Notes under the pieces: model-generated
What the model was told of the DNA's origin: nothing
Databases searched by the model: none
The model's input: only the letters and a program-made list of their open reading frames with translations
Source: a bacterium
GTDB taxonomy: Bacteria; Armatimonadota; Zipacnadia; Zipacnadales; Zipacnadaceae
Length of the DNA: 64,000 bases
NCBI GenBank assembly: GCA_030603495.1
Contig: JAUVXR010000001.1
Coordinates: 4,993 to 68,992, forward strand
Direction: 5' to 3'
In this document: positions 29,792 to 48,614 of the stretch, piece after piece
Layout: every line of letters begins with the position of its first letter
Position numbering within the stretch: the first letter of the stretch is position 1
Made by a program: the position numbers and the translations under genes

Positions 29792-30264
29792 CAGCAGTTA
29801 CGCAGCCCCAAACCGCCTTCGCAGCCCTAATCCACTATTCAACACCTTTCTTCTCTATTAGCCCAGCTTCCACCACACACAATGCATCCCAACGCATCAC
29901 CACCCACCACCCACCGCACCCAGTTGCTGCAGAGCACCTCCAACAGCCCACCTCACTCAGACCAACTCAATTCGGCTCCAACCAGCAACCTGCTTCAGTC
30001 AGCCATCGCAACCGCCAAATGACACTTTCCTCAATACTCCACGCCAGGCAAACGCCTTTGCAACCCACACTTCTCTTGAATGTACAGAATCCCAAACCAC
30101 CATTTCTACCAGCTTACTCCTGCAATTTTCCGCCAAGCTAAGAACATTTTCCATTTCCACACTCGTCTTCATATTCCACCCCAATCTACCCTTTCAATTC
30201 CTCTAATACCCATGATCAATCCCCACAAACTCTGCCCTCGGCCAGGCTCTCTCACCCCGCCAAC

Positions 30265-31353: not shown

Positions 31354-31647
31354 CTATTTAGCCCTTGCATTTCTGGCTACAACTTGGTCGATCAGGTCAG
31401 ATGCTTCTGTCTTGGTCATGTCGTCGTCAGACTCAACTCCCAGTATTCTCAAATAGGCTATCTGCTTCTCGGTTGCTTGCCCCTCATCATTGCGTCTTTC
31501 TTTTGCTATCTGTTTCATGCGCCTATCCTTGGCCATCTCTTGCATTACGGCCACGGCGTAGTCCTCTGTTGGCACCCCATGATCAAGCAAGCACTGCCAA
31601 ATCTCCCTGAGCTGCTCGGCATAATCTTGCATTTCCATTTTAACCAC
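31354..31647 (-). CDS. small hypothetical protein (97 aa)
   Basis: Charged, helical sequence (EKQIAYLRILGV...MTKTEASDLIDQV). It is an isolated gene in a lower-GC segment flanking the repeat-rich junction. Confidence 0.4.
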   Translation of the reverse strand: MVKMEMQDYAEQLREIWQCLLDHGVPTEDYAVAVMQEMAKDRRMKQIAKERRNDEGQATEKQIAYLRILGVESDDDMTKTEASDLIDQVVARNARAK

Positions 31648-32666: not shown

Positions 32667-33782
32667 ATGAATACCGCGGACTTCCCTGTAGCCGAATTGC
32701 ACCAGGTGTTCAGTGAGACTAGGACGCTAGAGCAACTCGTGGACAGGCTTTCTCAGGTCTCCCAATATCTCCCACCCGAGAACAATATCGAAGAGCTTGT
32801 CCCTGGCATTCTCGGCCTGTGGAGACACCTAGTCGCTACGAGGACTGATCCACACTTTTCGGGGACCTCGGAAAGTGTACCAGCATCCTTAGATACCCCT
32901 GAGCAGGAAACTGCTGGGTTTTCCCTAACCCATCAAATGCAGCACTTTCGGACCTTGAGAAAACGTGCGCTTCGTGGGACAGAAAGGTCAGGCTCAACGA
33001 GCGTACCACCTGAATCTCTACCGGGCAATCGGGTGCAAGTGCGGGGGGCAACCTGTACTGTTCATGGAATTGTACACAACACGGGTCGGCGTGTGCTACT
33101 TGCGCCGGAATTAAAAAACTACATCAGCACCGCCATCAGATATAGCCACCAGCCTCGCAAAGGCGAAACGTACCTATGCGAGTCATCTTTTGCTGACCAA
33201 TTTCATCTGGATCCGCACCACGAAATGGCTGACTCGAGCAGGTGGAAAGACTATGCGGCCCTTGAACGTACCGATGCTTCGTACTCGCATTTCTTTCCGG
33301 AGTATGCACCTTTGGCTGGGGTTCTGGCGGAAGAACGTATCGCCGAGCGCTTACTCAGGAGGCTAGCTAGCGAGCACAAGCAACTATGGTCCCCTCTCAT
33401 TCATTGTCTCAACCAGCCTTTGGCCAGTGTGAGCGACCTGGAGAGAGTTAGAGATCTCTACGCCTATATCGAGCTTCCACAGCCCCTTCAGACGGATTAC
33501 CATAGATTTGTTATTCTGTGCTTGAAAGAGCTAGTATGCAAGCCTTCGTGGCGCCGGGAATATGTTCGCTGGTTGAGTTCTTTGTACCGAGCCAAACATA
33601 TGGCTAGCCACGTTACAGAGTATATCCAGGAACATAATCTGCGCAGACTTCACATCCTCGTGGGACTTGCTCATGAATCATACATTGTATCTTTTCTCAA
33701 TGACATGAACTCTTACGGGGCAGGCGCACATGGTTGCTCAGTCAGCGGAAGCACTCATCAATCTCGCTGGAGCTCCGAATAA
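32667..33782 (+). CDS. hypothetical protein (371 aa)
   Basis: The only long plus-strand ORF in the 31.7-33.8 kb region, with protein-like composition. It converges on the 571-aa minus-strand gene with a 41-nt 3' overlap. Confidence 0.45.
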   Translation: MNTADFPVAELHQVFSETRTLEQLVDRLSQVSQYLPPENNIEELVPGILGLWRHLVATRTDPHFSGTSESVPASLDTPEQETAGFSLTHQMQHFRTLRKRALRGTERSGSTSVPPESLPGNRVQVRGATCTVHGIVHNTGRRVLLAPELKNYISTAIRYSHQPRKGETYLCESSFADQFHLDPHHEMADSSRWKDYAALERTDASYSHFFPEYAPLAGVLAEERIAERLLRRLASEHKQLWSPLIHCLNQPLASVSDLERVRDLYAYIELPQPLQTDYHRFVILCLKELVCKPSWRREYVRWLSSLYRAKHMASHVTEYIQEHNLRRLHILVGLAHESYIVSFLNDMNSYGAGAHGCSVSGSTHQSRWSSE

Positions 33783-35457
33783 CCACATCCCAGCTAGCCT
33801 TCCAGGCCTCGCCTTCGCCTGGCAAGTCCACACCCTCTAATGCTCCCGCTATTTCTGGTTGCATCACCTTGTGGTCTGTGCTCGTGCTGTTCCCGAAGTC
33901 AGGGTGCCCGTCGAATACTTGGGCAAATGTCGTCCACCAGGCCCTGGTTGCTTTGTTAAGTTCCCGGAGCCAATCTCCAGGCTCTTTCTCACCGTTAGCT
34001 TGCTGGATACTCCATACGCTATTGCTTAGAGCTTTGGTGGTGACAGGATCTGTTACGGGTTGGCCCTCTGCTTCTAATGAACTCTTAACCTTATCACTTG
34101 CATGGGCGGCATTTACCTTTTGCAAAACCTGGTCGGTGGCTTCCTTGACTTGTTTGTAAGCCAGGCCTACACATTTGCGGATCATGTACGGCGCTTCCTC
34201 GGTTTGCCGTCCAGATTCCCTGGCTGTCTGCCACTGCCTGCGGAGCTCTTTTGGAGTAGGCTGATTTGATTTGCTTGCTTCCCTGCTTTCAACGTAGGGC
34301 AGATAACACGGAATCCCTACTTGGCTAAGGGGCTGCGTCCGCTCTATGAAACCATCTGCCGCTCCTACGAGGGTTGCTTCATCGTCTGTGTCCCACATGT
34401 TCAAAGCGTCAGACAATACTCCCAGCCACTCTATCCGACACTGATTCTCGAATTCGGCGCATTCCACCATAAACTCAAATGATCTATCAATCGCCAGATA
34501 GTTAAGGAATATTGCTGCACGGCGTTCTGTGAGCTCGATTTCTTCCGAACCAGTTCGTTGGCGCCAGAATCGTTCAGCGGCCTCCAGGTATGTGTCTACA
34601 AGGCGCTCTATCACGATACGGGGGCCCCACAGTTCTTGATCTGATGCAAACGCAGTCGTCACTGCGTCCTCGTCTTGGAATGCCGAGCGCATCCTGTTGC
34701 CATTTTGTGTCCAGCCACCAATTGGCGCCGCCGCCAGAATCGGTACTCTCCGCCTGATGGTCGAGCTCTGCGGTACAAACGGGATCGGGCCATAGCAGTA
34801 CGGCGAGACAGCAATGCTACTCTTATAGCTCATCGCGTAGCGCTCTAAGTCTTTAAACAGATTGGCAAGCGTCTTGTAAGCCAGCGAACGGGTGATTCCT
34901 TCTTGTAGGCAATTGAAGCGCATCTGTAGCAGTCTCAGTGTGTAGTTGATTAGGGCCAGGTCCCTAGCTACCTGAGCCGCTGCTAACGTGTCCACGACTT
35001 CGAATTCTACCGCACGATGGGCTTTGTCCTGGCCTTTGAACTTGAGTACCAACCTGGCTAGACCGGAAGATAAGCTCTCTTCAGCTATCTCCCCAGGAAG
35101 ATACAGACGGACGCGATACCTCTTTTTTGTGCTCTCATCATGAATAACGCCATTCTGTGGTGAAATCATGCCGTGATCAAGCAGTATGTCTAAGCAGCGA
35201 CTAATCCCATGTGCAGATACGGTGCCCGCCAGGACTTGCTGCAACTGAGTAAATGAAATACCTTTTCTCGAGTTTCTCTCATCAATGAACTGTCGGGCGG
35301 TTCTGATCTTGGAGAAACTTAGCTCTGACTCGTCATCCGGCCTTTTCTCACGCTGCCCAACATGTTCATAAATAGCACAGGCAACGAAAATCTCTTCAGA
35401 AAACATCTGTGTAGGCTTCACTTGCTCAAATACGAAATCGCCGACTGGTGTGTCCAC
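33742..35457 (-). CDS. hypothetical protein (571 aa) with an N-terminal winged-helix-like segment; last gene of the pyr/PRTase operon
   Basis: Its start overlaps the stop of the upstream PRTase gene by 1 nt (35457). The N-terminus has ISFTQLQQVLAGTVSAHGISRCLDILLDHGMI (wHTH-like). The remainder is unassigned. Confidence 0.55.
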   Translation of the reverse strand: MDTPVGDFVFEQVKPTQMFSEEIFVACAIYEHVGQREKRPDDESELSFSKIRTARQFIDERNSRKGISFTQLQQVLAGTVSAHGISRCLDILLDHGMISPQNGVIHDESTKKRYRVRLYLPGEIAEESLSSGLARLVLKFKGQDKAHRAVEFEVVDTLAAAQVARDLALINYTLRLLQMRFNCLQEGITRSLAYKTLANLFKDLERYAMSYKSSIAVSPYCYGPIPFVPQSSTIRRRVPILAAAPIGGWTQNGNRMRSAFQDEDAVTTAFASDQELWGPRIVIERLVDTYLEAAERFWRQRTGSEEIELTERRAAIFLNYLAIDRSFEFMVECAEFENQCRIEWLGVLSDALNMWDTDDEATLVGAADGFIERTQPLSQVGIPCYLPYVESREASKSNQPTPKELRRQWQTARESGRQTEEAPYMIRKCVGLAYKQVKEATDQVLQKVNAAHASDKVKSSLEAEGQPVTDPVTTKALSNSVWSIQQANGEKEPGDWLRELNKATRAWWTTFAQVFDGHPDFGNSTSTDHKVMQPEIAGALEGVDLPGEGEAWKASWDVVIRSSSEIDECFR

Positions 35458-36476
35458 TATGCCTCACCTACCAGTTCTATGGTTCTATCAACTACGCTGA
35501 CCACTTCGTCCTGTAACAGGAAGTAACAGCAGCGCACAATCCGTTCATTGAAGCCTTGAAGTGCGACATTCATCCCTTCTTGTCTCAGTTCTGGGAGTGC
35601 TCTTCTAAGAAAACGGACCCCAAGCTGCAGGGATAGGTTGAAGTTGGCGCAATCCTGGCACAGTTCTGCCGAAGTAATTCCCCTAAAACGGTCCATGAAA
35701 GCGCAGAATCTCACAGCAGGTGTTTCGCCAAAACACAGATTCGCTCGCGGCTCTTCTACCTCTTCCCGATAGAATGCCATCGGTACACAATGAATCTTCC
35801 CATCCCCCTCGACGTACAGACGGATCTTGACAACACCCTCTGGCACAAAATGGGACGGGGCCGCAATGCTCGCCGATATAGACTCGTTTGGAAACAGAGA
35901 TGTATGGAGGACCCCTTCGTGAACTTGCCTAGCGGCGTAGTGCTCCAGCGTCCCAAACTCTCTCAGAGCCTGCCAAAACCGCTCAACTTCCAAGTTATCG
36001 CAACCGAGTTGTAAAACGACATGATCGTAGTCCAGGGGAAGACATGTCTCGTGGAGCAGTTCATTGAGGTCCGCTATCAGCAGCTGATAATCTCGCCCCC
36101 GAGGAATCTTCCAATAGCTCTTAGCGTAGTGGTCTGGAAGCAAGTGCAGTGGGACGTCTTCCCGGACCGCCAGCACAGCGACTTCGACCTTGGCGCCAAC
36201 ATTCTCCAGGAATGCCTTGGCCAAAGCTATCTGTCTGCCTGTTGCTATGGCGTCGTCCAGCACGACTATTTTCTTTCCTGCAAGTCCCCACCATGGATAG
36301 TAAAGGATCTTGTCACACACAATAACCTTTTCAATGATTTGTGCCTCATCACCCACTGCGATGCGCAACAGTGCGAGGCCCTTCCGTCCCACAGCAAATA
36401 TGTGGTCAAAGTCCTTTCTCAGGACCAAATCAATGAACTGCTGTATTTCATGTTCGAGCTCGCCGAATGCCTTCAT
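35457..36476 (-). CDS. phosphoribosyltransferase (PRTase type I fold) domain protein with Cys-rich C-terminal domain (339 aa); paralog of the C-terminal half of 46734-48614
   Basis: The PRPP-binding loop is GKKIVVLDDAIATGRQIA (compare canonical VLLVDDVxTTGxT). The C-terminal domain carries C-x5-C ... C-x2-C. Aligned blocks with the 626-aa protein: FDHIFAVGRKGLALL~CDYVVAIARKGARLL, GKKIVVLDDAIATG~GKKVLLFDDTVSTG, VVKIRLYVEGDGKIHCVPMAFY~ACKIRVYVDVGGCLSIVPIIF. Its start overlaps the stop of the upstream CN-hydrolase-like gene (ATGA). Confidence 0.7.
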   Translation of the reverse strand: MKAFGELEHEIQQFIDLVLRKDFDHIFAVGRKGLALLRIAVGDEAQIIEKVIVCDKILYYPWWGLAGKKIVVLDDAIATGRQIALAKAFLENVGAKVEVAVLAVREDVPLHLLPDHYAKSYWKIPRGRDYQLLIADLNELLHETCLPLDYDHVVLQLGCDNLEVERFWQALREFGTLEHYAARQVHEGVLHTSLFPNESISASIAAPSHFVPEGVVKIRLYVEGDGKIHCVPMAFYREEVEEPRANLCFGETPAVRFCAFMDRFRGITSAELCQDCANFNLSLQLGVRFLRRALPELRQEGMNVALQGFNERIVRCCYFLLQDEVVSVVDRTIELVGEA

Positions 36477-38191
36477 TGTTTGCTCCTGATACCAACGGCC
36501 CGAACTCGCCCTATCTTGTCTGGAAACTCTTCTACAAAAACCTGCACTATTGCCTCTGTCTCCGTCAATCCAGCCTCTTTTTTCCTTGCTATCCGGGCGA
36601 TGACTTCTTCCTCAGAGCACTTCTGTAGCAATTCCCTTCGACATCGAGTCACCGACCAATCGTCTCTTTTACTCAAATCATGCTTGTCCACATACTGCCT
36701 TCGCACAGACGTGTGGTTGACTTCCCTCTGGCGTTCTTTACACCACCCTATTCTGTCTGCCAGGCTCCGGTAGTCCGCGTGTTCCGGGCCGATTTCATCC
36801 GCGATTAGTGTCAAATACTTACTGAATTCGGACAGTTTGACGTACTGAAGCTCTTCCAATGTCTCGCCTGTCAGCGTTATCGCCCATGTGCGCACAAACC
36901 TATCCCATGTCGATAGGTTCACATATTCCTCATTGGAGAATACAGAGCGCAGCCGGGACACCAGGACCTCGTTTCCAAGATATCGGGAAAAGAATGTATG
37001 AGCTTCTCGGCTGGCATACAACGCCATCCGTTCATCACTAAACCCGTGGGCCAACAGGTCGCCCAGCAAAGTCCGGTAAGTGATTTCCCTGCCGAACTTG
37101 TCCGGTATCGTCTCTGAGTCGTAGTGCACAGGAATGAGAGCCACGGGACTGGTGGGCACGGGCTTTGGGACAAGCCCAAGAGTCCGATCGAGGTTCTGTC
37201 GTTCTGGTCTCGGGTCAACGTCCACTACTAGCATACCCTCGAATCCTGGGTCGAGGGGCCCATACATAGTGCCCTGACATCTCTCGTCGGTCAGCTGCTT
37301 GGTGTCGTACCAGGCTATGAGTGTGCTGCATCCAAACTCTGCATTATTGGCGAAAACTACTGGCTTTTGCCATTTTTTGATGCTTATATCAAACATATCC
37401 CAGAATTCTTGTCCTGTCTTGACCCGCTCATCGCTGCTTGGCTTGGAGATTGGAGTTGAAGCAACCACCACGTGGAGTGGAAACTCCGGGCTCGAGTATT
37501 CGGCGCAGTCTGGCGGATGCTCATTGCACAGGAAGACAACTGTTTTGTACGCTCCTACCTGACATTTGAAGTGAAAGGGGCCCTTTCCTTTCTTCATGAC
37601 GCGGGTTTCATACTGACTAGCATCTCTCTTGCCTCTAATGGCAGTATCGCCATCTGGTAAGAAGACCGGGCATAGGTTCTGCCGACGGTACTCCTCTTCG
37701 TCAATGGCAATACCTGCCTTCTCATAAGCGCCGTTTCTGATATCCTTGGCTCTGACATAGTGGGATCCCGCTATAATAGTCATTGGAGCTGCACGTGCCT
37801 TGCTCGCCGTATCCTGAAGACATCGGGCAGGTACGGAGAGTTCTGGGAAAACTACGAGATCGCAGCGCAAAAGTTTGCTCAAATCCAACACTTCTTGTAC
37901 TCGTTCTGCAACCCAGTCTATGTGACTGTTCTCCACAACTTGTTGAGAGTCTGTCACCGCCTGTTCTACCTCTTCGTCCTGCAGGCCCCTGGCCCAGCAT
38001 GTAATCGAGGAAGTTGGGGCCTTCCGCAGATTTTCCCAGCTATCCACCTCGCGGAGGGGATCAATGTAGCTTCCGGGTTCCTCCTCCACAGGAATCCATG
38101 GGATTGACCTAAGCTGAGCAATCGCTACCCTGAGGTGGTTCTTTGATGGCTTTGCTAGTGGTTCCAAGCTTCCCGAATTCGCGTGCATCAT
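36473..38191 (-). CDS. carbon-nitrogen hydrolase (nitrilase-superfamily)-like N-terminal domain protein with large C-terminal extension (572 aa); tentative
   Basis: Begins HLRVAIAQL. A Glu motif is present in DLVVFPELSVP. A candidate Lys follows, with a candidate Cys in TVVFLCNEHPPD, in E-K-C order and spacing like nitrilase-fold enzymes. It is paralogous to 43975-45900 (VFPELSVPARC ~ ILPELAAPQEC). The C-terminal roughly 300 aa are unassigned. Confidence 0.45.
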   Translation of the reverse strand: MMHANSGSLEPLAKPSKNHLRVAIAQLRSIPWIPVEEEPGSYIDPLREVDSWENLRKAPTSSITCWARGLQDEEVEQAVTDSQQVVENSHIDWVAERVQEVLDLSKLLRCDLVVFPELSVPARCLQDTASKARAAPMTIIAGSHYVRAKDIRNGAYEKAGIAIDEEEYRRQNLCPVFLPDGDTAIRGKRDASQYETRVMKKGKGPFHFKCQVGAYKTVVFLCNEHPPDCAEYSSPEFPLHVVVASTPISKPSSDERVKTGQEFWDMFDISIKKWQKPVVFANNAEFGCSTLIAWYDTKQLTDERCQGTMYGPLDPGFEGMLVVDVDPRPERQNLDRTLGLVPKPVPTSPVALIPVHYDSETIPDKFGREITYRTLLGDLLAHGFSDERMALYASREAHTFFSRYLGNEVLVSRLRSVFSNEEYVNLSTWDRFVRTWAITLTGETLEELQYVKLSEFSKYLTLIADEIGPEHADYRSLADRIGWCKERQREVNHTSVRRQYVDKHDLSKRDDWSVTRCRRELLQKCSEEEVIARIARKKEAGLTETEAIVQVFVEEFPDKIGRVRAVGIRSKQ

Positions 38192-38265
38192 AGATGCACC
38201 CCCATATTATGGCACTGATGATTCAATCTTGGACTTTGGGAACTCCGCGTGTGAAAGTGGCTCAG

Positions 38266-38931
38266 TTATGGGTGAAAGCTGTAACCCCCGTCTTTGTGCC
38301 AGGTCTCAGGGTCCGCAAGGTAGGCCCTGATCGATTTGTGCTCCTCTTGTGTCAAGTACCCGCCACTCATGCCGAGAGTCAGGCACGTCTCCAAGTCTGA
38401 TAGTCCGTGGAGTTGCACCCCAGCCTGCTGCAAGCGTCCAAGTCCGCCCTGCTGTCTATCGAATATGACGAGGCAGTCCGTCACTGAGCACTCGGCACCC
38501 CGAATTCCTTCGATAAAGGTGATTTTGCTCCCCCCATCAGTAATCAAGTCCTCACACAGTAGAACCGTTTTCCCTGATGGCAAGTGACCCTCTATTTGCG
38601 CCCCGACTCCGTGGCCTTTGGGCTCCTTTCGGACGTACACCATAGGCTTCCCAAGCCGGTCAGCTAGCCATGCAGCATATGGGATACCGGCAGTCTCTCC
38701 CCCTGCTATGTAGTCTGCCTCGATTCCAACGTCTTCGTAGAGCCAGTGAGAACATCCAGTCACGATGCCGCGTGCCCACGGGTACGAAATCAGAACTCGG
38801 CAGTCTACATAAATTGGGCTCAGGTTGCCAGAGACAAGCCTGAAAGGCTCCTCGACTGAGACCTTGACTGCGGAAGTCTCCCACAGAAGACTTGAAATGG
38901 TGTCTCTAACCTGCTCTCTCACCGCTGTCAC
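38266..38931 (-). CDS. pyrE: orotate phosphoribosyltransferase-like (PyrE family)
   Basis: FRLVSGNLSPIYVDCRVL matches the OPRTase N-terminal hood. The PRPP loop is GKTVLLCEDLITDGGSKI followed by IFDRQQGG, closely matching E. coli PyrE (GKRVMLVDDVITAGTAI ... LDRQERG). It overlaps the upstream pyrF-like gene by 26 nt. Confidence 0.7.
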   Translation of the reverse strand: MTAVREQVRDTISSLLWETSAVKVSVEEPFRLVSGNLSPIYVDCRVLISYPWARGIVTGCSHWLYEDVGIEADYIAGGETAGIPYAAWLADRLGKPMVYVRKEPKGHGVGAQIEGHLPSGKTVLLCEDLITDGGSKITFIEGIRGAECSVTDCLVIFDRQQGGLGRLQQAGVQLHGLSDLETCLTLGMSGGYLTQEEHKSIRAYLADPETWHKDGGYSFHP

Positions 38932-39673
38932 CTTCCGTTTCGAAATGCAATGCTATTTGGCAGAATGCTCCCGCGGCTTGGGTAACGTCGGCTGCCTTGT
39001 AGATACCGGAGCCGATTATGGCATACGCGGGGTGTCCCAATGTTGCGGCAAACGCCGTCTCGATATCGCCGCCCTGTCTTCCTATTCCCGGCAACAAGAA
39101 GCGAGGTGTTTGTATGGCCCCGCCAATCAACTTGGCATATTTCTCTACTGCACCAGGCCGGTTGCCAGGGACAACGAAATGAGTGACTCCTATATCAGCC
39201 GCAACTTTATACATTCGGGCAGGGGCATCATCACTGAGGTACCCGCCGTCCTTCGACAAGTACCGAGGATGAGTCATCTCTCCGCCTACGATAGCTATCA
39301 TGCCCTGTCCGATAATAGCGCGAAGCAGCGCCTCTTCTGTTTCTGGTCCTGCCTGAGGAAATACGATCGCGGCTGCGACTCCTGCCTCCTGCCAAACGCG
39401 CGTGAACTCTTCCGCAAGTTGAGGTATATCCGTGCCGGCCTTTTGATGATCATAGAGAATTGGCAGATTGGACTGCTCCTTTATTGCTCCAACAACATTG
39501 GCAAGTCCATATGTTAGACCCAGAATAGCACCTACCTTGTACCCTACTATCCCATTGACGGTGCTTGTAGCTCCCACGAGCTTCGCGAGTTCGTCTAGGG
39601 TCTCCACGTCGCAAGCAGGAATGATTCCGTAGTCTCTCTCAAAGAGCCTTTCTTCGTTGTGTATTGCCTTCAT
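38906..39673 (-). CDS. pyrF: orotidine-5'-phosphate decarboxylase family protein (divergent PyrF-like)
   Basis: ILYDHQKAGTDIP aligns to the D-x-K-x-x-D-I-P catalytic loop but with one extra residue in each spacer. LLPGIGRQGGD matches the PGIGAQGG phosphate-binding loop. The 255-aa length is typical. Divergence from the canonical motif is noted. Confidence 0.55.
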   Translation of the reverse strand: MKAIHNEERLFERDYGIIPACDVETLDELAKLVGATSTVNGIVGYKVGAILGLTYGLANVVGAIKEQSNLPILYDHQKAGTDIPQLAEEFTRVWQEAGVAAAIVFPQAGPETEEALLRAIIGQGMIAIVGGEMTHPRYLSKDGGYLSDDAPARMYKVAADIGVTHFVVPGNRPGAVEKYAKLIGGAIQTPRFLLPGIGRQGGDIETAFAATLGHPAYAIIGSGIYKAADVTQAAGAFCQIALHFETEGDSGERAG

Positions 39674-40209
39674 TGTTTTCCTCCGCTAGACGTTTCGGGC
39701 GCCAGTGGTGTGTTTCATAATCCACTGGACGCCAAGTCCACTACATGGACCGGACGGTCGAGTCACCCCAACACGCTTGGTGCCTTTTCCCCATCCTATT
39801 CTCCGTGGCCTCCGGTGTCAATATCTCTGCTGCCGGTACAGTTCGCCGTTGCACCTCCTTTCTCCTGCTGAGAACTTGCTGCCCTCGGCCCTAGCAGACA
39901 TCCACCGGCCGCAGCTTGCCAGCGCTTCGTGATAGTGCTGGGGGTTGCACCTGTTATAGAAGCAGGCTACCACTCGTTCGAGTTTTGCGGGTGAAGTATA
40001 GATCACCAGCCCCAACTTGGCTCTAGCAGTGTGGTTAAGCTGCTCGAACCTGACTATGGAGTTGCGTCGAGAACCACCAAATACTAACATGTGACCTGGA
40101 CTCGGTTTCGCACGCAAGGTGATATGAAGGGCCCGATTTCACAAGTATTCCGCTATGCTGGTCCCTGGCTTAATCTTCACATACACCCTGTTGCCTGACA
40201 CAGCACAAC

Positions 40210-43200
40210 TCACCGCACCTCTTCCACCTGCGTGCCGCGGTCGCTGCCACCCCATGTCAATCGGTACGCTCGAAACCGTACGACGTCATCCCGGTTCAGA
40301 CACGAGAACTTGGCTCGTGCCAGATGGAACAGCTCACTCCGGCCCGTGGTCACAATTATCTGCATGCGTTCAGCAAGGACTCTCAACAAGTCCAGCAGTC
40401 CGTAAATATTGAGTTCGTCCATCGCCTGCACAGGGTCGTCCAGTATGGCGAGTCTTAGTTGTCCTTCACGAGAAAGCGCCCCCGCCAAGAATGCTGAAAG
40501 TGCGATCAGATTCTGCTGCGCCTCGTTCATATAGGCCTGCACCAGCTTGCGATCGCTAACCGACTGGGATGTGGCTCCTCGCCTGGACAAAGCCCAGAAC
40601 CGGAGGCCGCTCTCATCGACAGTCCAGCTTATGTCGTCAAATACGGGATGGCGTGCGAGTCTTCGATGAATGGTTCTCATTAGATCTCTCAGCGGCTCGA
40701 GTCCCTCTCGAACCAGCCGAGCTTGCTCGCGCTCCACAAGGCGACCGCATTCTTTACCGGCATGTTCCCACCGCTTGTTCTCGGATATCTTCGCATCTGT
40801 CTCCTCTATTCTACGCTCGAGGTTGGCCATTTGTCCGTTAAGCTCTGCAAGCTGTCGCCGTGCCGATCTGACCTCGATAAACGCCAGAGCGGCACGACCC
40901 TCACGAATCAGATCTTCAATATGAGTAAGTTCTCGGCGAAGATCGTCTACTGAGCCGGCCTCTTCCTTGTCGGCTTGGGCGGCCGTTCCTTGTAGCACTC
41001 GCAGGTCGCTTTCGATTATTGTCGCGAAGTCACGCGTTTGCTGAAGTGCAGCACGGGCCGAACTTGCGGCCTCCCGAGCTGGTGCCAGGGCCGCTAATTC
41101 GTGTTCCAGCTGCTCAACCATCTTTGCCTTCTTCTTCTCCACTTCAACGGCACGATCAGCATGAGCTTGTTCCTCAGTCTGTATCTGCTCTACTTGCTGG
41201 CCCAATTCAGCCTCATCGGCTGATGGGTGCCACGCGGCGGCCTCGAGCCGCTCTCGCGCCTGCTCCATGTCTTCCGCCAGCGGTACCCGCTGGGCCCGCA
41301 ACTCACGGAGCTCACTTTGTATGGCTTCGCGATGCTCGGTCGCTCTATGAAGGCCTTCCCCCAACTCGAATGTCTGCGCTTGGAGCCGCTGCTCCTCTAT
41401 GTGTACCAGTTCAAGGGCCTTTAGCCATTCCTTCTGCTCGCGTGCGACATCCGCCGCCGTCGTATCAGGCGGGAGATCACAACCGGCCAGGGCTTTCACC
41501 CGCTCATCCTTACGCCGAGTTAGTCTCTCGAGTTGAGACTCGAGCTCCCTCTTCCTAGTCTCGGCTACGCGTAGGGCTGCCTCGGACTTCTCAAGACGCT
41601 GTCCCGCTTCGGCAAGATTTTCCCGCGCCTCGTCCCGACGCTGAGCCAAATCGCTCTCTTCTCTCGTAGGGGCGCCAATCTGCCGGTCTATCGCTGCCAA
41701 CAGGCCCTCTCGGCTAGGCCATTTGTGCGAACACAGTGGGCACTCGTTGCTGTCAGCGCCCTCCTGAAGCTCCCGCAGAATCTGAGCCCGGCGCTCCCGA
41801 CCGGACCGTACTTCAGCAAGCGCACGCTCAAGATTCTCAAGACGTATGGCCTGGCAGTCTCTTTCTTGCCTGTTTGCCAACACTTCTTCTGTGGCTGCAT
41901 AGACAGCGTGCTCTGCACGATCGTCCTCGGTAACTGCGCCCGCGTAACGCTCTTCCCTCTGGCCGTCAGCCTCCATTAGGCTGCGAAGCTTCGACAGCTT
42001 CTCAACCCGCGAGCTTGCTTCTTCGTGACGACGCTTCGCCTCTTCGACCACCGGCCGCAATGAGAATAGGCCCTCATTTGCTTCCCCTATATTGGCGCTT
42101 AGTTCCGCGCTTCGCCCCTCAAACACACCAATCTGGTCCGACATCTCGGCAAGACGCTTGCCACGTCGCGCCACCAACGGTCTTTCCCGAAGCCACCATT
42201 CGATCGCTTCCCGCCGCTGCGTACATTGCGCGCTTCTCTCTGCAATGCTCTTCAGAGAGTTCTCCAGTACGACGAGCGCTTCACGTAGTTCGCTTTCCCT
42301 TTCCGCCGCGTTCTTGCTCCGGCACTCAGCCGCTGATAGCTTCTCGGTCTCTTTATCGATCTCAGAGCGTACTGATTCAAGCTGTTGGCGAAGTTCCTCC
42401 AAATGAATCGTTCGGTTTATGGTCTCCTGCACGCTTCGACGCTGCATGTCTAGGTGCTCGGTCACCTGCTCAACAACCGCTGCAAGAGACTGATCGTCAG
42501 TAGGCCTCTCGTCGAGAATGCCATGAATACCCGCTGGCCTATGATATTCGGTGGTGCCTCGCAAAAACTCCTCCGGTTCACCTACAGCGTCAACACCCGC
42601 GCCAGCTTTCTCTACCAACACCGCCTCCGAACGTTGTTGGTCTCTCAGGCCGGCCATCTGCTGGTCGAGCGACTCTTTTTCCTTCTGCAGGCCTGCCTCC
42701 GTCTTGGAGAGTTCCTGTACGATGGATTCCAACTTCCTTGTTGTCCGTGCCAGCCCGCGGTCCCCCAGCAGACTCGCGAAGTGAGCCAAACGCGCCTTCG
42801 GGTCCTTCGTCGAGAGCAGTTGTTTCATCTGGCCCTGTCCCAGAAACAACCGCGCGCTGCATCGCGCGCGCAGTTCAGCTTCTCGTTCGTACGTTTCAGG
42901 GGCCACACCGAGCCACTGCCGCCAAAGTGCGCGTTCATCGAGCGGCGCCTCTTCGTCGAACTGCCGGCGCCCCGCCTCTTCCTCGACACAGTGAAACATC
43001 TGGCCAGCGGCAGCACGGAGCGTAACGTCAGCCGCTTGATCCTGCATGAACAGATTCCGTAGTGGTGAGTCGGTTGTCTCCGGCATCGCCTCGGTCGCCA
43101 CCTGATCCGCGAGCTCGACCACGGCCCCGCAGATCGCCCACTCCAAGGCTTGAACGAAGCTAGTCTTTCCTGTGGCATTCTCACCGTATAGCAGTGTAAT

Positions 43201-43974
43201 GTCCGAGGACAAGTCCACCCGGACCGGACTTGCTCCATCACCTACACGGAACGACCGGAAATTGTGCAATGTGAGATCCTGCAATCGAACCCCGGACCCC
43301 GAGCGTCGGGACAGCTTCTGCCTCCGCGCATCGCCTTCACCCCCTACCAGCTCCTGGTCAAGGTCCACAGTAGACTGGATCGTCGGAGCCCTTCCGTACG
43401 CACCTCGCATAATCTCCTGTGCAATCTGGTGCACGCCAGGCCGTGTACCTGCCAAACCGTCGGCCAGCTCGGCAGGTACTCCAGCCTCGCGCAGGAGCCT
43501 CGCCACTGCTGTCTTGCTAGACTCGGCAATAGGGGCCGACTGCGCAAGGGGCACAAAGGTAAGGTCCCCGAGTTGATCTGGCCACTCGGCACCATCATAA
43601 CTCACAACCTCCTTCATGCACTCGCTTCGAGAAGTCCTGATTCTGTGAAGGAGCGCTTCGCGCATGTCCAACGGCACACTGTCGAGCGATCTGACATCGA
43701 CCAGAAAGAGTAGGTAGGCGTCTGGCCCGATACCCCCGCGCAAATGCCATTGACGCACGATCGATCCTAGCTCATGCTGCGCCTCTTGCCATCTCTTGCT
43801 CAAGCGGTCCCACGTCTCGCAACATTGGATCCCGAGCACGCCGCAAGGGAAGCTGTACACTGCCTCTAATTCGTCCGTCTCCACCGTTGACTCCCTATGC
43901 AGTTTCAGATCAAGACCGCTCAAGCGTCGCTCGACTTGCGCAAGCAAATCATCGCGATGCAACCGTACTGTCAT
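40210..43974 (-). CDS. SMC/SbcC/RecF-like ABC ATPase with long coiled coils and a roughly 230-aa N-terminal extension (1254 aa)
   Basis: Walker A is ITLLYGENATGKTSFVQALEWAICG, at about residue 250. About 800 aa of E/R/L/A/Q-rich coiled coil follow. The C-terminal D-loop/Walker B is LAILDDPVQAMDELN. Its start codon is adjacent to the stop of the upstream 641-aa gene (43974/43975). Confidence 0.75.
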   Translation of the reverse strand: MTVRLHRDDLLAQVERRLSGLDLKLHRESTVETDELEAVYSFPCGVLGIQCCETWDRLSKRWQEAQHELGSIVRQWHLRGGIGPDAYLLFLVDVRSLDSVPLDMREALLHRIRTSRSECMKEVVSYDGAEWPDQLGDLTFVPLAQSAPIAESSKTAVARLLREAGVPAELADGLAGTRPGVHQIAQEIMRGAYGRAPTIQSTVDLDQELVGGEGDARRQKLSRRSGSGVRLQDLTLHNFRSFRVGDGASPVRVDLSSDITLLYGENATGKTSFVQALEWAICGAVVELADQVATEAMPETTDSPLRNLFMQDQAADVTLRAAAGQMFHCVEEEAGRRQFDEEAPLDERALWRQWLGVAPETYEREAELRARCSARLFLGQGQMKQLLSTKDPKARLAHFASLLGDRGLARTTRKLESIVQELSKTEAGLQKEKESLDQQMAGLRDQQRSEAVLVEKAGAGVDAVGEPEEFLRGTTEYHRPAGIHGILDERPTDDQSLAAVVEQVTEHLDMQRRSVQETINRTIHLEELRQQLESVRSEIDKETEKLSAAECRSKNAAERESELREALVVLENSLKSIAERSAQCTQRREAIEWWLRERPLVARRGKRLAEMSDQIGVFEGRSAELSANIGEANEGLFSLRPVVEEAKRRHEEASSRVEKLSKLRSLMEADGQREERYAGAVTEDDRAEHAVYAATEEVLANRQERDCQAIRLENLERALAEVRSGRERRAQILRELQEGADSNECPLCSHKWPSREGLLAAIDRQIGAPTREESDLAQRRDEARENLAEAGQRLEKSEAALRVAETRKRELESQLERLTRRKDERVKALAGCDLPPDTTAADVAREQKEWLKALELVHIEEQRLQAQTFELGEGLHRATEHREAIQSELRELRAQRVPLAEDMEQARERLEAAAWHPSADEAELGQQVEQIQTEEQAHADRAVEVEKKKAKMVEQLEHELAALAPAREAASSARAALQQTRDFATIIESDLRVLQGTAAQADKEEAGSVDDLRRELTHIEDLIREGRAALAFIEVRSARRQLAELNGQMANLERRIEETDAKISENKRWEHAGKECGRLVEREQARLVREGLEPLRDLMRTIHRRLARHPVFDDISWTVDESGLRFWALSRRGATSQSVSDRKLVQAYMNEAQQNLIALSAFLAGALSREGQLRLAILDDPVQAMDELNIYGLLDLLRVLAERMQIIVTTGRSELFHLARAKFSCLNRDDVVRFRAYRLTWGGSDRGTQVEEVR

Positions 43975-45900
43975 TTACTCGTCACCTCCCCGCGCCAGGC
44001 CCGGCACCTGTGCCAGGACGTGCCGCAGGCCCTCTCCTATAGCGCAAAGATCGTCTGCTCCATCCTCAAGCACGCAGTCCTCGATCGCCTGGATCGGTAT
44101 AAGCAGCAACGTAGCACGAGTTATATCTAGGTCATCCAAATCCTCACTGATAGGATAGGTCGATGCGCTCGGTCCTGTCAACCCTCCTAACGGTATGGCC
44201 TGGACCTCTAACTGTCCCCTCACACCGCATATGAGGTATATGTCCCCATCCTTCGCGTCCGAGCTAGCGTCCTCCACAACCCGTGCAGGAATATCGGACG
44301 ATAGCAAGTCACACCCATCGCGAGAATGTATCGACGGCCCGTTCTTTTCAAGCCGAACCGCCGCCCGTCTCCCCGTCGTACCTGAAATAGAAGCGGCTTG
44401 AAGGGGGAACCATGCATGTACCATTGTAAGTCCTGCAACAAGATGGCGAAGCCGATCTACATGGGTTGAATCCCAGGTGTCGGGTTGGGGCTTCAGATCA
44501 TCCGGCCAAAAAACGAAGGCTTCCTGCCCCAACATCTGCAGGCACTCGCCATTGATCCCCCAGCAGACTCGTCTCAGTTCTTCGTAGCTATTTCTCAGAC
44601 GCTGATAGAGCTGCTCCTGCACGGGACTCTGTTGAGACGGCTCCAGAAGATCCGTTCCGGTACTCGACCGCAGTTCGCATGGAAAGCCTCGCCAAGCCGC
44701 AAAGCGATATGCTTCGGGCACTGCCGCAGCGTCGCTAGTAAAGTCAACTCGGCCGTCAGACGGACGGATGCCTAGCCAAAGCCCCCCGGTAACAGGCTGA
44801 ATTCCGGCCGCGCCAAAGGGCCCCGGCGTCCGTGAGGGGAGCCGCGCTTTGACTAAGAATGCTGATGCCCGGCGAGGTCTGAAGTCATAGCGAACGATGC
44901 TCTCACCGCGTCTACAACAACACTCAGGCGGGTCCTTCGCGTATCTACGATGCCCGCCAACCAATATGCCGGTGCAACCGTACTCGTCACGTTCCTCGCA
45001 AATTGCTGCGGCGTTGACCCTCACGACACTTGCACCCGAAACGGCCGCGCCCACCGCTTGTGGCGAATCCACAAGTAGCCGATAGAAGCCTGCCGCCATG
45101 AGTTCATGGTCAGGCTTTTGGTTATGCTGAATGTGGATGATCGCATCAAGCGTCCTGGGTGGCTCATCCCCCTGGAAATGCTCCACGATGCCCTGCGCCA
45201 CTGAGCACCCGCCGTCAGCCCCAGGTGCGTCCACGTTGAGCATGTCCGAGCAGATGGTGAAAGCGAAGGACGCCTGGTCAATCACCAGAATGTGGACGGT
45301 TTCGCCAGCACAGAGCGATTCCCGTTCTTGAGCACTCGGGCTGATCTTTCTCTGGAAGACTACGCCTGGTTCGCCATGCCGATCCCGCCAAGCGATCAGC
45401 ATTGCGTTGACCCAGCTAGCGCTCGGGGATGCACGTGCCGCCATACGCCTGAGCTCTTCGTTCTGCCATTCTTGATCCGTCGCATAATCTTGCACAAATT
45501 GCTCATATTCTTCCCGGCTCAGGCGCTCGATACCTGATACGACAAGCATGCCCGGATCCGTCTGCGCCTCCGCGACTGCCTCCAACAGCCCTCTCACGCA
45601 TTCCTGCGGAGCCGCTAATTCGGGCAGGATTGCGGCATGAAGAGGCTGGAAATTCGCCGACACGCGTTCCTCCGGGTTAAGGACCAACTCGATGACTGAG
45701 TCGACGACTTGCTTCTGGTTGTCTCTCGAGTCACCCTCGATACGGCCCACTTCATCGCCGCTCTGAACAACAGCATAAAGAGGCTGTACAAGCAGGAAGT
45801 TAAGGTCTCCAGCAGGATTCCAGCCCAGATCTACTGTGTTAGTCCTCGGTTCCATGTCAAACCTCGCCCTGCGGACACGCGCGGTATGTCGCCTTGCCAC
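43975..45900 (-). CDS. CN-hydrolase (nitrilase-superfamily)-like protein, paralog of 36473-38191 (641 aa); tentative
   Basis: Shares HAAILPELAAPQECVRG with VFPELSVPARCLQD and TVHILVIDQASFAFTICSDML with TVVFLCNEHPPD of the 572-aa protein. It is co-oriented and contiguous with the SMC-like gene. Confidence 0.4.
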   Translation of the reverse strand: MARRHTARVRRARFDMEPRTNTVDLGWNPAGDLNFLLVQPLYAVVQSGDEVGRIEGDSRDNQKQVVDSVIELVLNPEERVSANFQPLHAAILPELAAPQECVRGLLEAVAEAQTDPGMLVVSGIERLSREEYEQFVQDYATDQEWQNEELRRMAARASPSASWVNAMLIAWRDRHGEPGVVFQRKISPSAQERESLCAGETVHILVIDQASFAFTICSDMLNVDAPGADGGCSVAQGIVEHFQGDEPPRTLDAIIHIQHNQKPDHELMAAGFYRLLVDSPQAVGAAVSGASVVRVNAAAICEERDEYGCTGILVGGHRRYAKDPPECCCRRGESIVRYDFRPRRASAFLVKARLPSRTPGPFGAAGIQPVTGGLWLGIRPSDGRVDFTSDAAAVPEAYRFAAWRGFPCELRSSTGTDLLEPSQQSPVQEQLYQRLRNSYEELRRVCWGINGECLQMLGQEAFVFWPDDLKPQPDTWDSTHVDRLRHLVAGLTMVHAWFPLQAASISGTTGRRAAVRLEKNGPSIHSRDGCDLLSSDIPARVVEDASSDAKDGDIYLICGVRGQLEVQAIPLGGLTGPSASTYPISEDLDDLDITRATLLLIPIQAIEDCVLEDGADDLCAIGEGLRHVLAQVPGLARGGDE

Positions 45901-46733
45901 CTTACCTGGCAGGCCCAGTCCAGAGCGCCTCCTCCGCCCCTGCCATACCGTCCATAGTCAGCCGTCGATCCGCCCTGCGTTCTCTTCTCCTCCTCTGTAC
46001 GCCCTTCTCATAACCCCCGTCGGTGACATCCACGTCCTGACACGCGCCGGTATTGCGTCCGTTAGCTCGCATACGTTCCTTGGAGTCTTCTCTCAGCCAC
46101 AACTTGGCCCTATTTCTCCTCTCTGTCAACCTTCGCGCCCGACTGCTGCAAAGCTTCCTTCACCTTCATCTTCAGCGTCTAGTTGCCAATATTGTTTTCC
46201 TCGACGCTTACACCAGCGCAGTCTCGGCCCCTCGCACCACAAAGACACACCTCTCGATGGACCTCTCACTCGGCACGCTGAACAGTCTGGAGACAGTATC
46301 GCGCACGGTGCCTTCTTTAGGTCGCTGAGTTGATATTGAGAATACCACGGATGGCGAACTTTGACAAGAATACGCGATTCTGCACACAGCAGGCCTTAGT
46401 ATGCGATGCGGAGACCCTAGCCCAAAACCAATCCCAGGGGCAGCGTCAGTATTTACAGTTCGCGGCCCAAAAAGCATGGTAAGGTAATCACCAGAAAGAA
46501 CTCAGGCAGGAAGGCGTAGCCAAGCAGCAGGAGACGCAGGTATTATCGTAGCAACGGCGAAAAGAAGACCGTGTATCGACACAGCGCACTTGACTATCGA
46601 CCACCAGCAGCAGTGGTGGCCTGGCCATGGCTGCAGGACCCCCGGCCCTCGTAGACGTCTACGGGACACAGCTCGCCCAGTGACAGCTAACTGAGGGGAT
46701 CCAACTACCATTGCTCCACGACCCTGCAGTTCT

Positions 46734-48614
46734 TCATTCGTCGCAGCATTCTGTCCCCTGGCTCAATATGCTCAGGACATACTGCAGGGCAAAAGGCGTC
46801 CGGTCCCTGAAATAGATAGCGAGTTGATCTTCATCCACTAGCCAAGACCCTATACTCATGCCCCACTTGGTGATAGTCTCGTTGGCGAAGGCAACGAAGG
46901 CAGCCCCAAGTCGAACAGATCCATGAAAATCCGAGCATTCGAGACACTGCTCTGGCTGATTACCTCCATACCAGCTCGAGGGTAATCTCTCACAGAATGG
47001 CATCCCCCATTCTCTCCGTCCCTTGCAGCTGGCGACTTGTTCAGGGGTTGGGTGTGTAATCTCTGGAAAGATAATAGGTACAATGGATAAGCAACCGCCC
47101 ACGTCTACGTATACCCTTATCTTACAAGCAGCCGACTCAGACACAAAGGAAGGCACCAAGACGTTCTTCGAAGAGAAGAACGTCGGGTTACTGACGGTCA
47201 ACAGCCGCCTGCCGAAGACTCTGGCTGTCGATGGTAACGCGAACAAGATGCCAGCAGATTGCAGCCACCCATAGCAAGCGTGAAGATCGAAGTTCTCGGT
47301 GTCCATTTGTATGACGGTTCTTCCAGGCTCAAACGGTGGGCACAGCGCAGCTAGGCTTAGCGCGATAGCCGCCTCTTCCTCTGCGTACTCATCTCTATGT
47401 AGTATTTTCCAGAAGACCCCCTGTCTAGCGTCAAGCAGTGTGGGCTCGTCTGCAGACAGCAAGAGGGCGCAGGGTGTAACCCGTGCACCTAGCTCTTGCA
47501 GGCGGCGTGCTGTCTCCACTATCCTGGTCCCGGTGCTCACTGTGTCATCAAAAAGCAACACTTTCTTCCCTTGGAACTCAGTGCCAGGTACGTGACCCAG
47601 CACGGGGAGTGGGATCAGAGCAGTTGCGGGCATGTCGTTCTGCTTCAGGACTTGGTGAAGTAGACGAGCGCCCTTCCTCGCAATAGCGACGACATAATCG
47701 CAGTTGTCCTTGACCGCCGCCTTGAGAAACTCGCCTACGCCTTCGAAGTACTGTTCGATATGAGCAGCAGTAAATGCCCCCGCTGGATCAAGGGCAATGT
47801 TGACCCCTTTCCTCAGTATCTCACCGGGTCGATATCTCCTCGTGTATGTCTGCTTGGTCACCCCTTCGCAGGCCTCAGTTGGTTTCGCGACCCCAACCGG
47901 AACGAGAAGCCCCGTTTCTAGCAGCGTGTCCAGAGCCTCACTGATCTGCTCGGGGGTGAGCCAACCCAGCCCTTCCTTTAATTCAGAGACAGAAAGCCCC
48001 GGCTTCTCGGTCGAGGTGACTGCACCAGTCAGATATCCCAGAATCGCCTGACAGTTGCCGAGATCAGGTTCCGAGAGGTGCACGTCGGATGGCGGGAGGA
48101 GCTTCTTATGGAATCCGGCCTCTACCATAAGAGAGACGATGCGATCCAAGTCTACGACTTCCACAGGAACCGGGTTCCTGGAGTTGTAGTCATGCACGCT
48201 CCGCTGCGCTTCGGCCGTCAGCTTCCCGTTGAAGACGAGTATGTACCTCTTAGGCCACTTCTCATCTACTTCGTGATGATGAACGAAGTGATCCATTGCG
48301 TCACTGAATTGGGGCTTAGCTTCGGTTCTCCATCGTGCTTCGGAAATGTCGCCCGTCTTGATTTGAACCAGCAGAACCTGAGTTGTGCCGAGCACATCAA
48401 GAGCTCCAGGCACTATGGCCACGATGTCCTTGCCGTGTTCCGACGAGCCGTGAATGATATCGCTGCGCAGCCGCTGGGCCTGAAGGAACCGGTTAACGAC
48501 GTCGCGCAGCTCCTCCTCACGCAGGGAGCGCAACAGGGCACCTAGCTCCTCAGCCCACCGAAAGTCGCTCTGCTCTGTCATCGGAATCCTCCTCCCGGAA
48601 CACCTCACGGGCAT
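46734..48614 (-). CDS. fusion protein: N-terminal restriction-endonuclease-like (Mrr/PD-(D/E)xK-like) domain, central region, C-terminal PRTase domain with Cys-rich tail (626 aa)
   Basis: The N-terminus has HGSSEHGKDIVAIVP ... VLLVQIKTGDI, a D ... Q-x-K arrangement like Mrr-type nucleases. The PRTase loop is GKKVLLFDDTVSTGTRI. The tail has CLECSDFHG and other Cys. The C-terminal half is paralogous to 35457-36476. Confidence 0.6.
   Translation of the reverse strand: MPVRCSGRRIPMTEQSDFRWAEELGALLRSLREEELRDVVNRFLQAQRLRSDIIHGSSEHGKDIVAIVPGALDVLGTTQVLLVQIKTGDISEARWRTEAKPQFSDAMDHFVHHHEVDEKWPKRYILVFNGKLTAEAQRSVHDYNSRNPVPVEVVDLDRIVSLMVEAGFHKKLLPPSDVHLSEPDLGNCQAILGYLTGAVTSTEKPGLSVSELKEGLGWLTPEQISEALDTLLETGLLVPVGVAKPTEACEGVTKQTYTRRYRPGEILRKGVNIALDPAGAFTAAHIEQYFEGVGEFLKAAVKDNCDYVVAIARKGARLLHQVLKQNDMPATALIPLPVLGHVPGTEFQGKKVLLFDDTVSTGTRIVETARRLQELGARVTPCALLLSADEPTLLDARQGVFWKILHRDEYAEEEAAIALSLAALCPPFEPGRTVIQMDTENFDLHACYGWLQSAGILFALPSTARVFGRRLLTVSNPTFFSSKNVLVPSFVSESAACKIRVYVDVGGCLSIVPIIFPEITHPTPEQVASCKGRREWGMPFCERLPSSWYGGNQPEQCLECSDFHGSVRLGAAFVAFANETITKWGMSIGSWLVDEDQLAIYFRDRTPFALQYVLSILSQGTECCDE

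Follow-up and report, generated by a model that had tools for sequence, protein, structure and literature searches.

Why would two enzymes of core pyrimidine biosynthesis be encoded at the head of an operon in a bacterial defence island? The question is raised by a 64,000-nt stretch of DNA (hereafter the window; contig JAUVXR010000001.1, positions 4,993 to 68,992, GenBank assembly GCA_030603495.1) from a member of the Zipacnadaceae in the phylum Armatimonadota, in which a pyrF-like gene and pyrE are followed by genes for a nitrilase-like protein, a phosphoribosyltransferase (PRTase) with a cysteine cluster and a 571-aa protein. In pyrimidine synthesis, PyrE converts orotate and phosphoribosyl pyrophosphate (PRPP) to orotidine monophosphate (OMP), which PyrF converts to uridine monophosphate (UMP). 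As in canonical pyrF-pyrE pairs and pyr operons, the catalytic motifs that we checked are kept in PyrE and, with an altered spacing of the DxKxxD motif, in the PyrF-like protein; unlike there, the pair heads an operon with three non-pyr genes in an integrase-bearing defence island. We found no PADLOC model of this gene set and no description of it in the literature searched; its parts are known defence domain types. Here, we present it as a rare, undescribed five-gene cassette, and from sequence comparison we see an even chance that it is a defence-type module functionally tied to UMP and PRPP metabolism. If this is true, it would be, to our knowledge, the first known case of core pyrimidine-biosynthesis genes travelling within an operon of defence type.

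Layout of the cassette

All five genes lie on the minus strand. The pyrF-like gene (38906..39673; 255 aa, OMP decarboxylase family, divergent and mostly archaeal clade) and pyrE (38266..38931; 221 aa, orotate phosphoribosyltransferase (OPRT) of bacterial type) are followed by the three genes that we call the module: those for a nitrilase-superfamily (CN-hydrolase) protein (36473..38191; 572 aa), the proposed effector subunit; for a PRTase-like protein with a Cys cluster (35457..36476; 339 aa), its proposed partner; and for a 571-aa protein with a probable winged-helix segment (33742..35457), the third subunit. The original prediction had described five minus-strand genes with overlapping or abutting boundaries. 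All five open reading frames (ORFs) are there, and the pyrF/pyrE, 572/339 and 339/571 pairs overlap by 26, 4 and 1 nt, but pyrE and the 572-aa gene are 74 nt apart and neither overlap nor abut. A terminator scan reported no terminator-like site on the minus strand in this gap, and a weak promoter-like site lies ahead of the nitrilase gene.

The GC content at third codon positions (GC3) is 0.51-0.60 across the 32.7-39.7 kb block, pyrF and pyrE included, which is below that of the Lamassu-like genes upstream (0.60-0.62) and that of the prophage-like genes of the window (~0.8). The candidate cassette promoter is a sigma-70-like site (TTGACA-17-TAGGAT, 10/12 consensus matches; 39793..39821, minus strand) that a consensus scan placed ~120 nt upstream of the PyrF-like start, as a pattern match alone, and the Shine-Dalgarno sequence ahead of the pyrF-like gene is good. 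The pyrF leader folds into no significant structure (z -0.91), and no pyrB, pyrC or pyrD was found near the window cassette.

A 20-nt near-repeat includes the ribosome-binding site and start (GGAG.AAACAATGAAGGCA) in two cassette genes, the pyrF-like one (39664-39683) and that for the 339-aa PRTase (36467-36486), with a third copy upstream of the LmuA-like gene described below (46183-46202). It may reflect chance or a common translation-initiation context.

Recurrence of the gene set

Other loci were reached from the nitrilase-like protein alone. A full HMMER search of 1.8 billion representatives returned 137 distant relatives of its residues ~15-370, against which the window proteins were then run by local phmmer; hence, there was no selection for pyr genes. 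One relative, P0200, has a C-terminal half that is homologous to the 339-aa PRTase over the full length (E 6e-35). A complete member of its cluster, P0259 (886 aa, named "predicted amidohydrolase" in IMG), is a fusion of nitrilase-like and PRTase proteins, whose halves match the 572-aa protein (27% over 566 aa, E 2e-42) and the 339-aa protein (E 3e-33) of the window. In its locus (L013, which two further samples also contain, as L014 and L015), the gene after that of the fusion overlaps it by 8 nt and encodes a 567-aa homologue of the 571-aa protein (E 3e-15), and the locus continues convergently with PyrE (31% identical to that of the window), a canonical type-1 PyrF, ispE and ksgA. That nitrilase and PRTase form one polypeptide here implies joint action.

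The best nitrilase match, P0123, led to a further locus (L016/L017), in which gene order and strand are the same as in the window. [quoted passage not shown] Its pyrE overlaps the 56-aa ORF, the end of which is 10 nt ahead of the nitrilase gene, and a TTGACA-17-TATATT sequence, read from the sequence as a pattern match alone, stands ~170 nt upstream of the first gene. Downstream of the cassette are a convergent 235-aa ORF, an integrase fragment, a DUF429-like/UvrD-helicase pair and a HEPN gene.

The full three-gene module was found in three loci (window, L013-L015 and L016/L017), and pyrE is its immediate neighbour in 3/3, whereas a pyrE or pyrF match occurs in 0/7 loci that carry the nitrilase-like domain in other architectures. 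By our own estimate, chance adjacency to one particular gene would be ~1 in 1,000 per locus. The module proteins are ~25-27% identical between any two loci, and PyrE and PyrF are far better conserved than these between the window and L017. The linkage of pyrF-pyrE to the nitrilase, PRTase and 571-aa genes, which had been noticed in the window, therefore appears genuine: the set recurs in two loci with module proteins that are 25-27% identical.

At L017:6310-8028, OMP decarboxylases of two classes (divergent clade, 240 aa; type 2, 327 aa) stand in tandem ahead of pyrE.

The module proteins are extremely rare, with few relatives found. Among the at least 600 stretches listed by a genome-contig scan with the PRTase alignment there were only generic PRTases (L010-L012), and among the at least 600 listed by a metagenome scan with the nitrilase alignment only non-cassette nitrilase loci (L020-L022). 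Word-indexed homologue searches with the 572-aa and 339-aa proteins gave self matches only. In tblastn searches against plasmids nothing was found for the 572-aa, 339-aa, P0259 and 641-aa proteins and one irrelevant match for the 626-aa protein (the last two are encoded by neighbouring genes, see below), and scans of viral contigs yielded nothing useful.

Several points weigh against a functional tie. Only three independent loci are available. In L013 the pyrF-pyrE pair is convergent to the module and part of a housekeeping-looking run (ksgA, ispE, pyrF, pyrE), so co-transcription does not hold for every locus, and L013 may simply have the pyr genes of its host. The class of PyrF also differs among loci (divergent clade in the window, divergent clade and type 2 in L017, canonical type 1 in L013), which fits the use of whatever pyrFE is nearby equally as a generic need for OMP decarboxylase. 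The PRTase match to Pfam barely passes, the PRPP loop of the L013 PRTase has Q at its first acidic position, and running the cassette through PADLOC, a defence-pipeline check that had been proposed for it, gave weak domain matches only and no system model that fits.

Some of these points would suit an ordinary pyrF-pyrE pair downstream of which a three-gene defence module lies, or has inserted, and with which it was later co-mobilised without any biochemical link. The interchangeable PyrF types, the L013 pyrFE grouped with ksgA and ispE convergent to the module, the 74-nt gap and the weak promoter-like site of the window all speak for such an arrangement, as do the canonical PyrE and the housekeeping role of the PyrF-like clade in archaeal pyr operons (see below). 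We nonetheless think it unlikely, given that pyrE adjoins the full module in all three loci, which a search blind to pyr genes had turned up, that the linkage persists while the module proteins have diverged so far, that the pyr genes of the window and L017 lie in mobile or variable regions and share their composition with the module, and that two PyrF classes in tandem, as in L017, are odd for a purely housekeeping locus. Were the pyr link accidental, the remainder would be a new but rare three-gene module of known defence parts. Ordinary passengers, on account of the archaeal housekeeping clade, had been our own first reading of pyrFE, and we dropped it after L013 and L017.

The pyrimidine enzymes

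The PyrF-like protein is above the Pfam threshold for OMP decarboxylases (PF00215 OMPdecase, 47.9 bits; cut-off 27), far under the NCBIfam pyrF equivalog cut-offs (PRK13813, 51.5 vs 208; TIGR01740, 26.5 vs 92.3), and aligns full-length with the OMP decarboxylase of M. thermautotrophicus. Its 1,540 homologues at E <= 0.001 (49-62% identity among the 120 listed) form a clade in which the named organisms are mostly archaea, with a few bacterial records. The one-residue insertions that the original prediction had noticed in its DxKxxD loop are present in the sequence (Y74-DHQKAGTD-82, with the spacing DxxKxxxD instead of DxKxxD). They do not mark a special variant, given that the loop is invariant in a clade of >1,500 proteins that occurs in ordinary archaeal pyr operons: D22, K46, D75, K78 and D82 are invariant within the clade, YDHQKA[GS]TDIP is kept across 12 sampled members, and Y74 and H76 are nearly invariant. 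Clade members fill the pyrF slot of pyrF-pyrE-pyrD-pyrK-pyrC operons on Aenigmarchaeota-type contigs, which argues for true OMP decarboxylase activity, and further members have PyrE next downstream. Most simply, the divergent PyrF would be a real OMP decarboxylase of an under-annotated clade. A special active site was also considered for it and rejected, the loop being a clade trait.

PyrE, which had been called a convincing orotate PRTase, deserves that description. It passes the TIGR00336 equivalog (109.7 bits; cut-off 106.8) and scores 213 bits for NF001729, below the cut-off of 245; its best PDB match is the OPRT 4ohc (168.5 bits), and both the flexible loop (R101-KEPKGHG-108) and the PRPP loop (C126-EDLITDGGS-135) are present. 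By these sequence measures it is a canonical bacterial-type OPRT. Like the PyrF-like protein, the clade of which is at home in ordinary archaeal pyr operons, it is an unexceptional member of its family.

The properties of the two enzymes also bear on the idea of a "lethal synthesis". Nitrilases convert nitriles or amides to carboxylates, and OPRT requires a carboxylated base. The CN-hydrolase could therefore make an orotate analogue from a nitrile or amide, PyrE and PyrF could carry it on to a UMP analogue, and the second PRTase could make a further nucleotide, the product being a toxin, a chain terminator or a signal. The chemistry suits the OPRT, pyrF and pyrE lead co-directional operons in two loci, the two PyrF classes of L017 could mean two substrates, and there is precedent in defence systems that make nucleotide analogues and in the PRTase of Ophion. 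However, we detected no substrate-pocket novelty in PyrE or PyrF, which are typical members of their clades and of interchangeable class, the host's ordinary pyrFE seem to serve in L013, no other tailoring genes are present, and elsewhere the nitrilase-like domain serves sensor-type proteins as their output and is not a pathway enzyme. Such a synthesis of a non-canonical pyrimidine is in our view decidedly unlikely. In the Pfam scans of the neighbours, which show defence and mobile genes instead of biosynthetic ones, nothing points to a nucleoside natural-product cluster either, a role that had also been proposed.

The module proteins

The 572-aa protein consists of a nitrilase domain (residues ~15-370) and a C-terminal helical domain (~372-565). 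It has no Pfam (CN_hydrolase included) or NCBIfam match and no PDB sequence match even at E 10, and its membership of the nitrilase superfamily is argued from predicted fold and motifs. An AlphaFold2 (AF2) model built with 32 relatives aligned (pLDDT 76, pTM 0.79) has the predicted four-layer alpha-beta-beta-alpha fold. The triad E117, K188 and C222 is invariant in 33 relatives, and a second Glu (E195, K+7) and the Glu of the C-x-E motif (E224, C+2) are present; E224 is invariant in the three cassette nitrilases and position 195 is D in L013. The earlier assignment to the superfamily, with its E-K-C order, is borne out by both fold and triad. The sole PADLOC models that match the protein are RT_UG5-nitrilase and RTasNitrilase, and both matches are weak (E 1e-8 over ~85-125 residues).

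Relatives of the nitrilase-like domain are found N-terminal to AAA_16/TPR and NACHT+FGE-sulfatase proteins and at the N-terminus of proteins of 1,000-2,400 aa. Two side observations concern its other partners. In P0137 and P0140 the domain is fused to an IF-2B-family domain (ribose-1,5-bisphosphate / methylthioribose-1-phosphate isomerase-like), as it is at L027:7001-9364, which lies among the AbiE and DUF4391+SNF2 genes of a defence island; such fusions would be another tie between the nitrilase-like domain and phosphoribose-binding folds. At L018:1724-5502 and L026:782-4308, the gene for a nitrilase-like protein (of 426 or 573 aa) has that for a HerA/FtsK-like ATPase immediately after it. 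Identity between the two ATPases is 31%, one of the loci lies beside ParDE and a transposase, and this pair, from two unrelated metagenomic loci, is a candidate for a separate two-gene defence system.

The 339-aa protein scores 27.1 bits for Pfam PF00156 Pribosyltran (cut-off 26.3), and both its PPi loop (G30-RKG-33) and its PRPP loop (L73-DDAIATG-80) are intact. The Pfam match and the PRPP loop together mark it as a minimal type I PRTase. Within the C-terminal domain, C258, C273 and C276 are invariant in four relatives and C248 is kept only in the 626-aa paralog; the Cys cluster probably binds metal. The description of a second PRTase with a Cys-rich tail is thus upheld by the Pfam match, the intact PRPP loop and the three invariant cysteines. 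The protein is paralogous to the 626-aa neighbour, the C-terminal half of which it resembles (25% over 301 aa, E 2e-23), and it matches PADLOC ShosT over 54 residues around the PRPP loop (E 2.4e-4). Its PyrR matches in NCBIfam and PDB are faint, and a PDB profile search with the PRTase family gave only generic PRPP-loop matches.

For the 571-aa protein no Pfam, NCBIfam or PADLOC match was found, the LmuB and LmuC models included, and relaxed Pfam scans of three proteins of its family gave no consistent match. A probable winged-helix segment (residues ~49-120) is followed by a long helical remainder. Residues 64-133 resemble residues 204-275 of the 626-aa protein (E 4e-5), a segment ahead of its PRTase domain, two homologues keep the winged-helix-like stretch, and the AF2 model, of low confidence (two sequences, pLDDT 36), has an H-H-H-beta-beta pattern over it. 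The N-terminal wHTH that had been proposed is therefore plausible on indirect grounds, namely this resemblance, the conservation and the low-confidence model pattern, and lacks a family match. The protein may act as a sensor, as a regulator or in DNA binding.

A 371-aa convergent ORF (32667..33782, plus strand), possibly cassette-associated, overlaps the end of the 571-aa gene by 41 nt. Its GC3 of 0.53 is cassette-like and it has no family match. A weak C-terminal VGLAHE match (E 0.23) links it to the convergent 235-aa ORF of the L017-type locus (L023:2631-3338, minus strand), and the two also have an N-terminal G..H motif in common.

These protein features invite comparison with a PRPP-responsive regulatory or salvage unit that has no part in defence. 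In B. subtilis, PurR combines a winged helix with a PRTase fold that senses PRPP, and PyrR has a PRTase fold. By analogy, the wHTH protein and the PRTase fold might control pyrFE, and the CN-hydrolase would be an amidohydrolase like ureidopropionase or ureidosuccinase. Beyond the PurR/PyrR precedent and the faint PyrR matches, it can be said for this that the structural neighbours of the nitrilase-like domain include beta-alanine synthase and carbamoylases, next to NadE. Against it, every nitrilase branch gives a similar structural score, hence there is no specific affinity to the carbamoylase branch; relatives of the domain are fused to STAND NTPases or lie within defence islands; the module proteins are fast-evolving and extremely rare; the window locus adjoins Lamassu-like genes in an integrase-bearing island; and the window, L013 and L017 gave no Rfam match to a pyr leader or PyrR element. 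We consider a purely regulatory or salvage role very improbable.

Relation to known defence systems

Both enzyme types that the cassette joins, in L013 even by fusion, have open substrates in defence. The nitrilase of DRT1 is a toxic effector, with its substrate stated as unknown (PMC13275509). The PRTase of ShosT binds PRPP, with the acceptor stated as unknown (PMC11961720), and defence PRTases have been reported as one clade (bioRxiv 2025.09.30.679545). A conserved neighbourhood with the enzymes that lead from orotate and PRPP to UMP gives a short list of candidate substrates.

The class 3 defence reverse transcriptases (DRT1/UG1 and UG5) have, like the cassette, a nitrilase-superfamily domain with K, C-x-E and E motifs. 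Unlike them, the cassette has no reverse transcriptase (no such domain was found in its proteins or in the neighbouring large ORFs scanned), its nitrilase is N-terminal and paired or fused with a PRTase, and the similarity is weak. A type I PRTase fold that binds PRPP is likewise a defence component in ShosTA, type III-A retrons and Ophion, and type III retrons also have a winged-helix partner, whereas the cassette has no pyrophosphatase (PPase) domain, DprA-like antitoxin, reverse transcriptase/ncRNA, radical-SAM or PHP partner. Pfam, PADLOC and NCBIfam scans for membership of ShosTA found no PPase and no DprA-like protein. Compared with the other defence PRTases, the C-terminal Cys-cluster domain and the nitrilase partner are unique to the cassette module.

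Two biosynthetic enzymes offer analogies of architecture. In PurF an amide-hydrolysing domain is joined to a PRTase domain, and the B. subtilis enzyme has a Cys-ligated cluster; the PurF glutaminase is however an Ntn hydrolase and not a CN-hydrolase, and there is no sequence relation beyond the PRPP loop. NadE, which is among the structural matches of the cassette nitrilase, uses a CN-hydrolase domain as a glutaminase.

A further comparison is with Lamassu, genes of which adjoin the cassette in the window. A 1254-aa LmuB (40210-43974, minus strand; PADLOC LmuB, 9.8e-62), the first 228 residues of which match nothing, is preceded by a 641-aa LmuA-like protein (43975-45900, minus strand; PADLOC LmuA, 1.8e-14) with the CN-hydrolase-like motifs E94/K185/C217, and this in turn by a 626-aa protein (46734-48614, minus strand) that combines an N-terminal Mrr nuclease (Pfam Mrr_cat, 21.9 bits), a wHTH and a PRTase/Cys cluster. 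In hhalign, the nitrilase-like profile matches the 641-aa protein with a probability of 65% (E 6e-5), with the PE, K..S..E and IC.D motifs aligned, and the protein is apparently of amidase type, judging by these motifs. The likeness is thus to an adjacent LmuA-like protein with the same motifs, preceded by a paralog of the PRTase/Cys-cluster protein; the difference is that LmuB or any other SMC/ATPase is missing from the cassette, all five proteins of which match no LmuB or LmuC model. Hence we treat the Lamassu-like system (40210..48614, minus strand) as separate from the cassette and partly paralogous to it. An accessory gene of Lamassu that encodes a PRTase may not have been reported before. 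The trio of nitrilase-like, wHTH and PRTase/Cys-cluster parts occurs twice in one island, and one copy is attached to an SMC-type sensor, LmuB.

Proposed mechanism

The twice-occurring trio, the rapid divergence of its proteins and their rarity agree with a conflict or defence module whose output is the nitrilase. In our proposal, the nitrilase-like domain would be the output enzyme, toxic or metabolite-destroying, as is suggested by the company that its relatives keep: the effector position in STAND NTPases, HerA-like ATPase neighbours, the LmuA position in Lamassu and a toxic relative in DRT1. The PRTase/Cys-cluster subunit would recognise PRPP or a phosphoribosyl nucleotide, and two options can be envisaged for it. 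It might be a co-catalyst, by analogy with PurF, so that the nitrilase-PRTase pair would act as a sink for PRPP or amide nitrogen; or its fold might be a ligand sensor, by analogy with PurR and PyrR, which would fit a nitrilase domain that is otherwise joined to sensor modules, and the IF-2B fusions. The wHTH protein would trigger or regulate the module.

PyrE and PyrF would occupy a PRPP/pyrimidine node that they have in common with the module, PRPP being the metabolite common to PyrE and the PRTase fold. Once activated, the module would drain or corrupt the PRPP/pyrimidine pool, while PyrE and PyrF would keep the UMP supply of the carrier going. We offer this role as a built-in metabolic counterweight only tentatively, as it is rather doubtful; that the two enzymes feed substrate to the module seems to us less likely than a counterweight.

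Extended to other systems, the cassette would point to the PRPP/pyrimidine-nucleotide node as the target of defence nitrilases (DRT1/UG5, amidase-type Lamassu, STAND fusions) and defence PRTases (ShosT, type III retrons, Ophion). The nitrilase-PRTase pair would then work as a PurF-like machine of two enzymes, by which PRPP or a pyrimidine nucleotide is destroyed or diverted, and PyrE/PyrF would be a co-inherited metabolic antidote or substrate feeder, a new type of partner in metabolic immunity carried by a defence operon. We regard this generalisation as conceivable and worth stating, at fairly low confidence. Of the nucleotide-modifying system of the original prediction, the linked gene set, the nitrilase fold and the defence and mobile context are retained, and the special PyrF variant and the natural-product pathway are not.

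Island context

The mobile and defence setting that had been described for the locus is confirmed by the Lamassu-like LmuA/LmuB pair, the Mrr-type nuclease fusion, three integrases and the RNase P RNA gene rnpB in the window. The rnpB gene (50841-51347, minus strand; 278 bits, 507 nt, bacterial class A, with large insertions relative to the 367-position model) is the sole Rfam match in the window. A tyrosine integrase gene (49747-50673, minus strand) directly adjoins it, which suggests that rnpB was the integration site of an island comprising all of this defence-rich stretch; a search of the window for an att-like repeat of the rnpB 3' end found none. The other integrases are at 7097-8251 and 20032-21327. 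Among the other mobile or defence-type content of 7097-28593 and 51514-61485, further genes encode HerA/mad8-like ATPases (8289-10415 and 26554-28593), a ThiF/E1-like protein (11508-13172), a MoxR ATPase (23653-24996) and a GHKL-ATPase protein (51514-53190), and phage portal and capsid genes are interleaved with those for GT4 and GT9 glycosyltransferases (55871-57112, 59266-60210).

The 536-nt gap between LmuB and the pyrF-like gene contains a 99-aa ORF (39818-40117, minus strand), for which a C-terminal remnant of an IS3/rve transposase was considered (YN..H..L) and rejected, as Pfam gives no support. On the other side of the cassette, the stretch at 29200-32660 is ORF-poor and C-rich (GC skew ~-0.2), with 18-nt tandem repeats (29534-29668), an exact 40-nt direct repeat at 30271 and 30465 and a small DUF3072-like ORF (31354-31647, minus strand) inside it; it may consist of decayed genes or non-coding DNA.

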